A model generated the notes under the pieces. It was given only the letters and a program-made list of their open reading frames with translations, was not told the origin of the DNA and did no database searches. Positions 20,080-29,144 of a DNA stretch of 64,000 bases are shown piece by piece. The translations under genes were made by a program, and so were the position numbers. This DNA is from Escherichia coli (GTDB lineage Bacteria; Pseudomonadota; Gammaproteobacteria; Enterobacterales; Enterobacteriaceae). Location: NCBI RefSeq assembly GCF_017348835.2, contig NZ_CP071375.1. The stretch is one strand, 5' to 3'. The first letter of the stretch is position 1, and every line of letters begins with the position of its first letter.

Positions 20080-20139
20080 ACGATTGATCAATATAAAGAG
20101 GCCCAGCAATAAATAGCCAGACCTCCCGTTAATTATACG

Positions 20140-21168
20140 TTATGCAGCAACGCCTTCCGGTATCAGCGAAGCAATTTGCTTACGCCATTGCGCTTGCTCC
20201 TGTTCGCCTTCTGTACGTTGACCATAAAGTTGCGCTATCTGCGTACCATCATGGGCAAACAATTCCAGACTGGTTACGTAGCCATCGCTGGTCGGTTTAC
20301 GGGTAACCCAGGCTTCAGCAATGCTCTCTTCTAATAGATGAAGAGTAAACGTCGGGTTGAAAATATTCAGCCAACCTTTCATTGGCACCACTTTTTCTAC
20401 CACACCGGTGAAAATCTGTACGCAGCCACGGTTGCCAACAAACACCATGATTTCATTACCATCCTGCTGTGCAGATTCAAGAATTTGCGCCAACGCACTG
20501 TTGGATACTTTGCAGGCCAAATCGTCCGCCACCAGATTGAACGCCTGTTGGCGCGTCAGGTTGTGGCGCTTGAGCAACGTAAAAAACTGATGAACGTCGG
20601 TCATCGCCCGCCACTCTTGCTCGACCACACTGGCATCGACTCGCGTTTGAACAACTGGCGCATCAACGGCTTTTAACTCAAGCGGCGTATTCTCATCGGT
20701 GATAAACCGTGCCAGAAGCTCACTCCATGCCGCCATATCGGTATTGTCGGTGGCATAAACTTTTAGTAATGCATCGCCCTGATGATCAAAGAACTGAATA
20801 CTTTGGCGTTCGCCACGAGCCGTGTTTTCTTTGATGTGGAAAACACTGGCCCATTGATTGAGAAACAGACGTAAATCCAGCGCGCGTGGATTGAGGATCA
20901 ATCCGGCATGTCCGTTCAAATGCTGGTTTGTGAACGCACCAACTTGCTCATGGACTGCATATTCATTACGGCAAATACATTTGGTCTCGCCAACACTTTC
21001 GAGCGCCGCCAGAATTTCACGGATATCGCCGCGCATCCGCCACGCATCGTGCGTGACGCGTGCAAATGCCAGTTCTGCTTCTCTAATATTCATTAACCCT
21101 GCGATGTCACGCGCGTACTTTCCGGGATTTTGTTCTTTTAACTCAAGCCAGCGTGTGTAGTGGTTCAT
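20140..21168 (-). CDS. chuS: haem-degrading / haem-binding protein ChuS (HemS family)
   Basis: 342-aa ORF immediately downstream of chuA on the same strand. Confidence 0.9.
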   Translation of the reverse strand: MNHYTRWLELKEQNPGKYARDIAGLMNIREAELAFARVTHDAWRMRGDIREILAALESVGETKCICRNEYAVHEQVGAFTNQHLNGHAGLILNPRALDLRLFLNQWASVFHIKENTARGERQSIQFFDHQGDALLKVYATDNTDMAAWSELLARFITDENTPLELKAVDAPVVQTRVDASVVEQEWRAMTDVHQFFTLLKRHNLTRQQAFNLVADDLACKVSNSALAQILESAQQDGNEIMVFVGNRGCVQIFTGVVEKVVPMKGWLNIFNPTFTLHLLEESIAEAWVTRKPTSDGYVTSLELFAHDGTQIAQLYGQRTEGEQEQAQWRKQIASLIPEGVAA

Positions 21169-21216
21169 TGTCTCTCTTCCTTCCAGATAAATGCCCCTAA
21201 ATATCGGGGCAGATGA

Positions 21217-23199
21217 TTACCATTGATAACTCACGAAAATTTTTCCGTTACGACCATCCTGTGGGATGCCTTGCGGCGACCAGTACTCTTTGTCGAAAGC
21301 GTTACCCAACACCAAAGTAGTGGTCATACCTTTGAGCGCCTGTTGTCCTTGATAACTGACGTAGAAATCATTCACGCCATAGCCTGGTTGTTTGCTGTAA
21401 CTGCTGCTGATATGTGTTGAGCGATCGGCAAACGTACCAACCCACCCAACAGAGAAGCCACTGTGAGCGATCGGAATATTCAGGGTGCTGGTAACGGTAT
21501 CCGGGTTAATGCTGGAGATGTATTCGCCGGTATCGGTGTCTTTGCCGCGGGTACGGTTATAGGCCACATCAAGGCTAAACAGATCAGTGGTATATTTCGT
21601 CATCACATCCCAGCCCCAGATTTTGGCGTTCGGGACGTTATACGACATAGTCGTCGCCGCCGCGAAATCGACGGTCGTGGAGATGTAATCCTTCGCTTTG
21701 GTATCAAAGTAGCTGGCTTTAAATTCCAGAGCATCATTGGACAACATCAGGTCATCAAAACGCAGCCCAAAACCGTACTCCTGAGTTTCGTTAGTTTCCG
21801 GACGTAAGTTCGGGTTTGACACCCAATAGTTGGTATAGAAGCGACCAATCGAGAAGTGCTTAGAATCGTTATACATTTCGCCCATCGTCGGGGCGCGGAA
21901 TGCCTGGGCATATGAGCCAAATAACATCAGCCAGTTAGTCGGATTGATAGTCATCCCCGCACGAGATGACCATTTGTCGGCATCAACATCTTTGTAACCG
22001 TCACTGCTACCGCGATAACTGTCATAGCGGGTTCCGCCAAGCAGGGTAATCGGCAGATCGCGTAAGGTGATCTCATCCTGTAGCCAGCCGGAGCTAAAAT
22101 CGATTTTTGCTTGCGGGAAGCCCGTCGTCGCGCCGCCCGGATGTTGTTCCTGACGATAATACTCACCGCCATATGTCAGTAAGTGAGAAGCGAAACTGTC
22201 GGCAAAGAGAGTGGAACGGTTCTCCAGCCTGGCTCCTTTTGTTATCTGTTCACGATACTCGCCGGAACTCCCCGTGTTTTGCGCATTAATACGGACTTCC
22301 GACCAATAAATTTTTGCATCTGCATTTAACCAGTCGTTGCCCTGCGGGGCGAGTTTATAAGAAAGCTGCGCATCGCGTTGAATTGTTGAACGATCAACCA
22401 TCGGGTTGCTGCTTTCAGAAGCCTCAACGGTCTGCGGATTTTTTGGTTCACGCGCGTCGTTGTTGTAGTAACGCACTAAACCGCTCAGAGACTGGGCTGA
22501 ATCAATTTGCCAGGTCCCTTTCGCCAGCATGTTATTAATGGACTCGTCATTCGGCGCGGTTTCACCATTGCTCTGGCGTAAATCACCCCGATCGCGACTG
22601 GACCAGGCCACAATACCATCCAGATTTTCAGTTCGCCCAAACGCGCTCGCGCCTAATCCCAGGCTATGGTCCCCCGTGCCGCCAGTACCAAAGACACGAA
22701 AACCACTGCTTTGTCCTTCCTGCAATAAATCTTTTGCATCGACCGTATCGTAGGAGATCACTCCACCCAGCGCGCCACTGCCATACAGTAATGCTGAAGG
22801 TCCGCGAACAATCTCAACACGCTTGATCAGCGCCGGATCGAGAAAAGTGCCATTCAGGTGTCCGGTATCCGTTCCCTGGCGAACACCATCGATAAGAACC
22901 AGCACGCCGCGATGATCATAGCCACGCATATTTACATCCTGACCGTTGGTTCGTCCGGTACCATCCAGAGTAATTCCAGGAACATGACGCAGCAGATCGG
23001 TGGCTGAAGTAGCCGTTTGATTTTCAGGAGCGGAAGTGTCGATGACGCTGACCATCATAGGCGCTTCGAAGGAACTACGGGCATTCCCCGTTGCCGTAAC
23101 GGTCATGGTTTCAGTAGCAAAAGCAAACGTTGGCAAGGTGGCAGAAACAGCCAAGGCCAATAAACTCAAACGCAACGAGGTAAATTGCGGACGTGACAT
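21217..23199 (-). CDS. chuA: TonB-dependent outer-membrane haem/haemoglobin receptor ChuA
   Basis: 660-aa ORF with signal peptide, TonB box (ETMTVTA) and C-terminal aromatic residue (...YQW). Confidence 0.95.
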   Translation of the reverse strand: MSRPQFTSLRLSLLALAVSATLPTFAFATETMTVTATGNARSSFEAPMMVSVIDTSAPENQTATSATDLLRHVPGITLDGTGRTNGQDVNMRGYDHRGVLVLIDGVRQGTDTGHLNGTFLDPALIKRVEIVRGPSALLYGSGALGGVISYDTVDAKDLLQEGQSSGFRVFGTGGTGDHSLGLGASAFGRTENLDGIVAWSSRDRGDLRQSNGETAPNDESINNMLAKGTWQIDSAQSLSGLVRYYNNDAREPKNPQTVEASESSNPMVDRSTIQRDAQLSYKLAPQGNDWLNADAKIYWSEVRINAQNTGSSGEYREQITKGARLENRSTLFADSFASHLLTYGGEYYRQEQHPGGATTGFPQAKIDFSSGWLQDEITLRDLPITLLGGTRYDSYRGSSDGYKDVDADKWSSRAGMTINPTNWLMLFGSYAQAFRAPTMGEMYNDSKHFSIGRFYTNYWVSNPNLRPETNETQEYGFGLRFDDLMLSNDALEFKASYFDTKAKDYISTTVDFAAATTMSYNVPNAKIWGWDVMTKYTTDLFSLDVAYNRTRGKDTDTGEYISSINPDTVTSTLNIPIAHSGFSVGWVGTFADRSTHISSSYSKQPGYGVNDFYVSYQGQQALKGMTTTLVLGNAFDKEYWSPQGIPQDGRNGKIFVSYQW

Positions 23200-23203
23200 A
23201 GCG

Positions 23204-28326: not shown

Positions 28327-29093
28327 TCAGCGCCCAGAATCTGGTTTATAGCCTTCAGGGGCGGCGTCTGACTGATAATGTCTCGCTGACTTTTCCCGGT
28401 GGGGAAATTGTTGCCATTCTCGGCCCTAATGGTGCGGGAAAATCTACGCTGCTTCGCCAGTTAACCGGCTATCTTCAACCTGATAGCGGCGAATGTCGGT
28501 TGTTTAATAAGCCATTAAATGAGTGGTCGATTACTGAACTGGCGAAACACCGGGCCGTGATGCGTCAAAATAGCCACATGGCGTTTCCATTCAGCGTACA
28601 AGAAGTTATCCAGATGGGTCGGCATCCGCATCGTACTGGTAATCAGGATAATGAAACAGCACAAATAATGGCGTTATGTGACTGTCAGGCGTTAGCAAAC
28701 CGCGACTATCGGCAATTATCCGGTGGTGAACAACAGCGCGTGCAATTAGCGCGCCTGCTGGTGCAACTCTGGGAACCTACTCCCTCACCGAAATGGTTAT
28801 TTCTTGATGAACCAACTTCGGCGCTGGATATTCACCATCAGCAGCACTTGTTCCGTTTATTACGCCAGTTAGTTCACGAACGGCAGTTCAATGTTTGCTG
28901 CGTATTGCACGATCTAAATCTTGCCGCGCGTTATGCAGACCGTATTGTATTAATGCAAAAAGGAAAGGTTATCGCAAATGGTAAACCGCAGGACGTATTG
29001 ACACAGCAGGCGCTGACAATGCTCTACGGCGCGGATATTACCGTACTTAAAGATCCTGCCAACCATTCACCACTGATCGTCCTCGATCATTAA
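28323..29093 (+). CDS. chuV: haem ABC transporter ATP-binding protein ChuV/HmuV
   Basis: ORF trimmed to ATG at 28323 (ggagga RBS; ATGA overlap with chuU stop); Walker [10 protein letters not shown], signature LSGGEQQR. Confidence 0.9.
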
Positions 29094-29102
29094 AAGCAAC
29101 AG

Positions 29103-29127
29103 GAGTACCGCACTGGTACTCCTGCGA
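29103..29127. terminator. hairpin between convergent chuV and yhiD
   Basis: caggagtaccg...cggtactcctg palindrome. Confidence 0.5.
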
Positions 29128-29144
29128 ATAAATAACTATACAGA

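Follow-up and report, generated by a model that had tools for sequence, protein, structure and literature searches.

The chu locus and its flanks

We analyzed a stretch of 64,000 nucleotides (nt) of Escherichia coli DNA (contig NZ_CP071375.1; here called the window), which carries the heme utilization locus chu, equivalent to shu and to O-island 140, between dctR and yhiD of the acid fitness island. Genes were placed by combining open reading frames (ORFs) with the RefSeq annotation of the near-identical E. coli PE164; window positions 19000 to 30500 are 100% identical to the pig isolates PE164 and F2_81, and the next genomes are 99.3% identical. In a blastn alignment to K-12 strain MG1655, homology stops at window position 20080, one base past the dctR stop codon, and resumes at 29140, five bases before the yhiD stop codon. 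The dctR-yhiD interval is thus 9,059 bp long in the window versus 35 bp in K-12. An earlier reading, made from the letters of the window only (here, the sequence-only reading), had placed eight chu genes in two divergent units at the dctR-yhiD junction, from 20080 to 29144. These coordinates lie within 1 to 5 nt of the breakpoints found by alignment to K-12, and the genes, their order, their strands, and their position were all correct. The features of the segment and its immediate flanks, with the evidence for each, are as follows.

20081 to 29139: chu locus (O-island 140), found here but not in K-12 (blastn alignment of the K-12 region to the window)
19549 to 20079, plus strand: dctR (yhiF), left flank, LuxR/GerE-type regulator of the acid fitness island (annotation; Pfam GerE; 100% amino acid identity to Sakai)
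20140 to 21168, minus strand: chuS, cytoplasmic heme-degrading protein with two HemS/ChuX domains (Pfam HemS, 3e-82, in two stretches)
21217 to 23199, minus strand: chuA, TonB-dependent outer membrane heme/hemoglobin receptor (TIGR01785, TonB-hemin, 585 bits versus a cutoff of 317; Pfam Plug and barrel)
23882 to 24796, plus strand: chuT, periplasmic heme-binding protein (Pfam Peripla_BP_2)
24816 to 26153, plus strand: chuW, radical-SAM methyltransferase of anaerobic heme degradation (anaerobilin synthase) (TIGR04107, rSAM_HutW, 570 bits versus a cutoff of 400; Pfam Radical_SAM)
26166 to 26660, plus strand: chuX, cytoplasmic heme carrier (TIGR04108, HutX, 210 bits versus a cutoff of 110; Pfam ChuX_HutX)
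26660 to 27283, plus strand: chuY, NAD(P)H-dependent anaerobilin reductase (Pfam NAD_binding_10)
27334 to 28326, plus strand: chuU, permease of the heme ATP-binding cassette (ABC) transporter (Pfam FecCD, 1.4e-95)
28323 to 29093, plus strand: chuV, ATPase of the heme ABC transporter (NF010068, 395 bits versus a cutoff of 261; Pfam ABC_tran)
29145 to 29792, minus strand: yhiD, right flank, MgtC/SapB-family protein of the acid fitness island (NF007431, 402 bits; annotation)

The ORF list agrees with this layout, giving two long minus-strand ORFs (20140 to 21168 and 21217 to 23199) and six plus-strand ORFs (from 23804/23882 to 24796 through 28293/28323 to 29093), with an ORF of 176 amino acids (aa) on one side, its end at 20079, and a minus-strand ORF on the other, its stop codon starting at 29145. 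The RefSeq labels across the region read slp, dctR, chuS, chuA, shuT, hutW, hutX, chuY, shuU, heme ABC ATPase, and yhiD, followed by hdeB, hdeA, hdeD, gadE, mdtE, mdtF, gadW, and gadX. To the left of chu lies slp-dctR, and to the right lies yhiD-hdeBA-hdeD-gadE-mdtEF-gadW-gadX-gadA; in the annotation, both flanks are as the sequence-only reading had described them when it set slp-dctR apart from yhiD-hdeBA-hdeD-gadE-mdtEF-gadWXA.

The eight genes and their proteins

All eight chu ORFs are full length and free of internal stop codons, and the NCBIfam and Pfam family models concur with all of the gene names. With O157:H7 Sakai as the reference for enterohemorrhagic E. coli (EHEC) and CFT073 as that for uropathogenic E. 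coli (UPEC), the eight Chu proteins are 96 to 100% identical at the amino acid level, and the DNA of the segment is 98.6% identical to that of Sakai and 96.3% identical to that of CFT073. Low identity to Chu/Shu proteins, which had been named as the outcome that would overturn the assignment, was therefore not seen.

Comparisons with solved structures point the same way for individual proteins. ChuA has 3 differences from the solved ChuA 9DIR and matches ShuA 3FHH strongly, with His86 and His420 of the mature protein present. ChuS is identical at 338 of 342 positions (4 differences) to the solved O157 ChuS 4CDP and is also near-identical to 1U9T; its His193 is present. Mature ChuT is identical to S. 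dysenteriae ShuT 2R7A at 254 of 256 positions and has Tyr94. ChuX aligns over its full length with the solved ChuX 2OVI (E = 4.5e-110), as does ChuY with the solved ChuY/ShuY-like structures 5FFQ and 5GUY (E about 1e-133). ChuU is identical to both Sakai and CFT073 at 330 of 331 aligned positions. A CX3CX2C motif occupies ChuW residues 67 to 74, and ChuV has Walker A and LSGG motifs. We take His86 and His420 of ChuA to be heme ligands, as in ShuA, and presume the roles commonly given to ChuS His193, ChuT Tyr94, and the ChuW and ChuV motifs. The segment thus contains everything by which a Chu/Shu locus is recognized at the sequence level, namely, ChuA, ChuS, the ChuTUV importer, ChuWXY, the divergent layout, and Fur/FourU control.

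The annotated ChuT precursor (window 23882 to 24026) has an unusually long leader of 48 residues before the mature N terminus of the ShuT crystal structure. A typical signal peptide follows a GTG codon at residue 29, and the start of the Citrobacter homologue corresponds to residue 31; a second ChuT start codon is possible.

Control region, thermometers, and terminators

The divergent intergenic region between chuA and chuT is 682 bp long, and it holds the only Fur box matches that score 15/19 or better anywhere in the 64 kb, where 0.04 such matches per window would be expected by chance. One lies at 23489 to 23507 (17/19, the best in the 64 kb), and the others lie at 23834 to 23858 (15 and 16/19). 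No Fur box of at least 14/19 was found ahead of chuS or chuU, the sole other site being at 25874, inside chuW. The control features are listed below.

23489 to 23527, minus strand: chuA promoter, with a -35 element at 23527 to 23522 and a -10 element at 23504 to 23499, overlapped by the Fur box at 23489 to 23507 (promoter scan)
23197 to 23228, minus strand: FourU RNA thermometer over the chuA Shine-Dalgarno sequence and start codon (Rfam RF02597, shuA_thermo, 60.1 bits versus a gathering score of 58)
23804 to 23881, plus strand: chuT promoter (TTGAAT at 23804 to 23809, TATATA at 23826 to 23831), Fur box at 23840 to 23858, and 42-nt leader (Fur scan, 16/19; sequence)
21192 to 21211, minus strand: possible partial terminator between chuA and chuS, a hairpin with a U-rich tail in their 48-nt spacer (terminator scan; z = -1.1, not significant alone)
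27289 to 27313, plus strand: G+C-rich hairpin in the 50-nt chuY-chuU spacer, without a U tract (fold of -19.8 kcal/mol, z = -2.4)
20087 to 20127, minus strand: intrinsic terminator downstream of chuS, a 12-bp stem followed by UUUAUAUUG (-20.5 kcal/mol, z = -3.67, with 0 of 200 shuffles as stable)
29099 to 29125, minus strand: yhiD terminator, an 11-bp hairpin followed by a U tract, inside chu-specific DNA (terminator scan; -20.4 kcal/mol, z = -3.6)

The start site of chuA is placed at about 23492, which gives a leader of about 293 nt, and 293 nt is the leader length of the UTI89 chuA construct of Kouse et al. (PMC3660397). In the predicted fold of the chuA thermometer, AUUUUCC pairs with GGAGAAU, so that UUUU pairs with the Shine-Dalgarno sequence (z = -2.9); thermometer function has been shown for shuA/chuA (PMC3660397). 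On the other side, the chuT Fur box begins at the predicted start site, 23840, exactly 42 nt before the ATG, and the 42-nt leader folds into a shuT-type thermometer hairpin in which AUUCUC pairs with the Shine-Dalgarno region. This matches what has been reported for shuT, with a mapped start 42 nt before the ATG, a Fur site "immediately downstream," and a thermometer in the leader (PMC5458455). The chuY-chuU spacer hairpin is kept in the spacer of a Citrobacter cassette described below, and the yhiD terminator hairpin also sits just past the chuV stop codon.

With two strong Fur boxes, none before chuS or chuU, and hairpins in the spacers, the sequence is consistent with two divergent units under iron repression, perhaps with attenuation inside them. 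The two divergent units of the sequence-only reading accord with the two Fur box promoters; against this, the original shu study, as far as it is cited in PMC5458455, gave four promoters, which were predictions.

Three further candidates in the segment were set aside. A permissive Rfam scan returned, besides shuA_thermo, only Hammerhead_HH9, which at 24 bits versus a cutoff of 52 was taken as a chance match. A 53-aa ORF in the 293-nt chuA leader (23323 to 23484, minus strand) was considered as a remnant of hemP and rejected; it has no Pfam match and gave E = 0.053 against Kluyvera HemP in a single pairwise comparison, whereas Kluyvera HemP itself matches Pfam hemP at 4e-17. A 99-aa ORF at 23475 to 23774 (minus strand) has no family match, is no longer annotated in Sakai, and was judged spurious; it is probably the old ninth gene of O-island 140.

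Predicted function

The mechanism of heme uptake has been established for near-identical proteins, and we extend it here by identity. ChuA, powered by TonB, would move heme from hemoglobin across the outer membrane, ChuT would ferry it through the periplasm, and ChuU and ChuV would pump it into the cytoplasm. Under aerobic conditions, iron would be released by ChuS; without oxygen, its release would go through the radical-SAM enzyme ChuW, with ChuX as the carrier and ChuY reducing the anaerobilin product. Because a Fur box overlaps each of the two back-to-back promoters, both would be repressed when iron is plentiful. The FourU thermometer at the end of the chuA leader and a second thermometer hairpin at the end of the short chuT leader are predicted to favor translation at 37°C. 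Given its carriage of chu, the strain should be able to use host heme as an iron source.

Distribution among E. coli and earlier descriptions

Among 5,426 complete E. coli genomes, the 9,059-bp segment was found in 2,238, at 96.2 to 100% identity. It is full length in 2,234 of these genomes, the same number have it contiguous with both flanks, and 4 have partial copies only. The locus is always single copy and chromosomal and is never plasmid-borne. The K-12-type empty junction, including its 35-bp filler, occurs in 3,179 genomes, and the dctR-yhiD junction effectively has two alleles, chu occupied and empty. The locus had been taken in the sequence-only reading to mark the strain as non-K-12, which is true, but the mark is a weak one, as the cluster is present in 41% of complete E. 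coli genomes. chuA serves as a marker in Clermont phylogroup typing and is found outside groups A, B1, and C.

The chu loci of EHEC O157:H7 (O-island 140) and CFT073 and the shu locus of S. dysenteriae have the same eight genes in the same order and on the same strands, with the same dctR (yhiF) and yhiD junctions, Fur box promoters, and FourU thermometer as in the window, from which they differ by only a few substitutions per protein. A further difference is one of annotation: a ninth ORF was once counted in the chuA-chuT spacer of O-island 140, but it is unannotated in Sakai now, where the tags jump from ECs_4380 to ECs_4382. O-island 140 has been described within the acid fitness island, between yhiF/dctR and yhiD, for O157(:H7), O145:H28, enteroaggregative E. 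coli 042, and S. dysenteriae (PMC10540162, PMC3893438, PMC9144400) and also for an outbreak strain (bioRxiv 10.1101/429480 among the sources). The arrangement is therefore known biology, as the sequence-only reading had said in pointing to EHEC, UPEC, and S. dysenteriae, and the window holds an intact, ordinary copy of a thoroughly characterized locus.

Age of the locus

To place the locus outside E. coli, we used one ChuA scan of GTDB species representatives, which returned 80 loci whose gene order was read by tblastn. chu occupies the dctR-yhiD site in E. albertii and in three other divergent Escherichia genomes. In E. albertii NBRC 107761, the eight chu genes lie between dctR and hdeB; yhiD is missing, and chuV adjoins hdeB, in agreement with the report of E. 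albertii chu without yhiD by Bush et al. 2018 (PMC5799925). Two genomes deposited as E. coli, which are only about 90 to 91% identical to the window here, have the complete arrangement, and in Escherichia sp. strain MOD1-EC7003, chuT-V has been lost and chuA-chuS remains beside yhiD. In all comparisons, the chu genes show the same nucleotide identity as slp, dctR, yhiD, and hdeABD.

Marks of mobility are lacking in turn. There are no tRNA genes in the 64 kb, no direct or inverted terminal repeats at the segment boundaries, and no integrase or recombinase among the annotated genes of the segment. The G+C content of chu (0.48 to 0.55) is near the species average, versus 0.33 to 0.45 in the acid resistance flanks. 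None of the usual signs of a mobile or pathogenicity island (integrase or transposase, tRNA or att site, direct repeats, and deviant composition) is thus found in the segment.

With the same site occupied in divergent Escherichia, divergence equal to that of the flanks, and no mobility marks, K-12 therefore most likely lost chu, which is most likely not a mobile island but an ancient resident of the dctR-yhiD site. Its residence at this site would predate the split between E. coli and E. albertii, and a single deletion would have removed it from the lineage to which K-12 belongs. Bush et al. 2018 (PMC5799925) and the xenoGI 3 paper (PMC10362622) likewise concluded that the locus was lost on the way to K-12, and both the ancestral presence of chu and its loss in K-12 are already published. 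The sequence-only reading had spoken of chu as accessory content that splits the acid fitness island. Its place within the island stands; the insertion implied by that wording is less likely, as the evidence favors an ancestral part of the island that K-12 lost.

The independent deletion of chuT-V in MOD1-EC7003 ends at most 3 nt from the K-12 right breakpoint (window 29137 to 29140), by the yhiD stop codon. ERIC-like repeats are present at the joint of that deletion and in the chuA leader of the same genome.

A probable composite of two heme uptake systems

The two halves of chu have relatives in different kinds of loci. Colinear hemR-hemS-hemT-hemU-hemV operons that begin with a relative of ChuA, with hemP ahead and without chuW, chuX, and chuY, are present in Kluyvera, Citrobacter, Enterobacter, Lelliottia, Cedecea, Buttiauxella, and others. 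In pairwise identity matrices, ChuA (78 to 88%) and ChuS (72 to 85%) are nested within the diversity of HemR and HemS from Kluyvera, Citrobacter, Enterobacter, and Buttiauxella. ChuT (31 to 35%), ChuU (59 to 66%), and ChuV (50 to 55%) are outliers to HemT, HemU, and HemV, for which the other genera are 52 to 89% identical among themselves. Yersinia-type hemPRSTUV operons (Kluyvera, Citrobacter, Enterobacter, Cedecea, and Buttiauxella) thus share with chu a receptor and a HemS-type protein close to ChuA and ChuS, and the 60 to 80 nt that immediately precede the receptor start codon, in which the thermometer region lies, are conserved with chuA. In contrast to these operons, chu has chuW, chuX, and chuY, lacks hemP (the chuA leader ORF being without a match), and has T-U-V genes that are not colinear but lie on the opposite strand and are of a different lineage.

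The other half has its counterparts elsewhere. ChuW relatives at 83 to 87% identity occur in Citrobacter, Klebsiella, Kluyvera, Raoultella, and Salmonella. In Citrobacter portucalensis, a colinear receptor-T-W-X-Y-U-V cassette lies between cueR and copA (CP089437.1, L086 7011-14279); its T-V proteins are 78 to 88% identical to those of the window, the DNA is 76% identical over window positions 24029 to 28958, and its receptor, of 714 aa, is 30% identical to ChuA. Klebsiella sp. strain BIGb0407 has the cassette at a different site and without U-V, and one Salmonella enterica genome has it among an integrase, a TraI_2 relaxase, and ArdC, a context like that of an integrative and conjugative element (ICE). 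Across these three taxa (C. portucalensis, Klebsiella sp. BIGb0407, and S. enterica), the cassette resembles chu in its T-V order and its Y-U spacer hairpin and differs in having its own colinearly transcribed TonB-dependent receptor (710 to 716 aa, about 30% identical to ChuA), in lacking chuS, and in its chromosomal sites. The first residue of the Citrobacter T protein corresponds to ChuT residue 31, so the N terminus, leader, and promoter of ChuT are specific to the Escherichia arrangement. At blastn sensitivity, the joint region (about 23229 to 23975, with both promoters, both leaders, and the first 31 chuT codons) has no counterpart in either parent type.

A more distant likeness is to hutWXZ of Vibrio cholerae, as ChuW and ChuX match the curated family models for HutW and HutX (TIGR04107 and TIGR04108). 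We take the third gene there to be of the HutZ type, whereas here it is ChuY, an NAD(P)H-binding reductase (NAD_binding_10). At cueR-copA, the site of the C. portucalensis cassette, E. coli K-12 presumably carries ybaT-glsA1, another acid resistance pair, which may be a coincidence.

These comparisons lead us to favor, with some reserve, an origin of Escherichia chu in which the receptor/HemS half of one system was joined head to head with the transporter/degradation half of another. chu would then be a composite of two modules, a hemR-hemS-type chuA-chuS pair and a T-W-X-Y-U-V cassette, which in other Enterobacteriaceae still has a receptor of its own. It is somewhat probable that this chimera is specific to the genus and was assembled once, before the E. 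coli/E. albertii split, from a hemRS pair minus hemP and hemTUV and a TWXYUV cassette minus its receptor. With about the same assurance, we suggest that the join gave rise to a bidirectional control region that had not existed before, containing two Fur boxes and two thermometers, and likewise to a new ChuT N terminus. It is likewise rather plausible that the locus was part of the acid fitness block from the start, and heme acquisition and acid resistance would therefore have been inherited together. If this origin is true, two separate heme uptake cassettes went into the making of a locus widely used as a virulence and typing marker, which would explain why the chu receptor and its ABC transporter have different closest relatives. 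No description of the chimera was found in the searchable literature; in our view, it adds modestly to what is known and does not amount to a discovery.

Overall reading and alternatives

Overall, the segment is very probably an intact chu locus (shu, O-island 140) in its usual chromosomal place, an old, nonmobile composite that was lost in the K-12 lineage. Several points weigh against parts of this reading. The 35-bp filler of K-12 matches neither the ends of chu nor any of the loci compared; as it matches nothing in chu, the deletion would have left no recognizable scar. As for the operon structure, four promoters were predicted in the original study, whereas here Fur boxes lie at only two, with hairpins in the chuA-chuS and chuY-chuU spacers. 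The chimera is proposed from identity matrices and gene order, and function in this strain is read from sequence identity. Finally, occupied and empty alleles may have been transferred between genomes by homologous recombination through the flanks, which we consider unlikely, for reasons that are weighed next.

If the junction were an old presence/absence polymorphism whose alleles had been exchanged between lineages in this way, the state of the junction in this strain would say little about its descent. The existence of only two junction haplotypes is in keeping with such exchange, as are the puzzling phylogenetic distribution noted in the original study, in the part quoted in PMC5799925, and the uneven divergence from CFT073 (chuY, 92.8%; chuX, 94.5%; chuV, 98.8%), which is compatible with recombination tracts. 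However, the 96.2 to 100% identity of the locus across 2,238 genomes is in the same range as that of the core genome and fits mainly vertical descent, so we hold the polymorphism, too, to be unlikely. Considerably less probable still is that chu is a horizontally acquired islet, inserted into an intact acid fitness island of pathogenic lineages, with K-12 retaining the ancestral empty site. Much of the literature words chu as "inserted," the dctR-yhiD junction is clean in K-12 and 3,179 complete genomes, and elsewhere, as in the ICE-like region of Salmonella, mobility of the related T-W-X-Y-U-V cassette is clear. Yet the same junction is occupied in E. albertii and the three other divergent Escherichia genomes, at a divergence equal to that of the flanks; integrase, tRNA, and direct repeats are absent, and the G+C content is nearer the genome average than that of the flanks; and reconciliation analyses place a loss on the K-12 branch. 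That chu persists in this strain as an inactive, decaying remnant is very improbable: degraded states do occur, as in the 4 complete genomes with partial copies only and in the one Escherichia species that lost chuT-V, but here eight full-length ORFs are 96 to 100% identical to functional references, and key residues, promoters, Fur boxes, and thermometer are intact.

Other features of the window

Several differences from K-12 and from PE164 lie elsewhere in the window. An insertion of about 1.09 kb relative to K-12, at 14679 to 15771 between dinQ and the small RNAs agrA/agrB, is an IS481-family transposase in the near-identical PE164 annotation; some 8 bp of the K-12 sequence can be aligned to either side of it, suggesting a target site duplication. 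Nearby, arsR and most of arsB are missing relative to K-12 (junction at 16241 to 16244), and only arsC (16305 to 16730) is left; this arsC-only state is common to CFT073, and Sakai has arsRBC. A yhiS-like ORF of 371 aa (17357 to 18472) is intact, as it is in Sakai (ECs_4376); the gene is split by IS5 in K-12 and marked as frameshifted in PE164, and the window is therefore not strictly identical to PE164. Similarly, gadA (40070 to 41470) aligns without gaps to K-12 gadA at 98.6%, and the frameshift annotated in PE164 is absent from the window. The PE164 position matching the window start (window 1 to 1106) lies inside the gene for a DUF4049-domain protein, adjoining yhiM. At the Rfam gathering score, small RNAs were found at 5896 to 5936 (ES036), at 15815 to 15898 and 16046 to 16129 (AgrB family; agrA and agrB), at 32901 to 32972 (ES205), just downstream of gadE, where K-12 has gadF, and at 38751 to 38864 (GadY).

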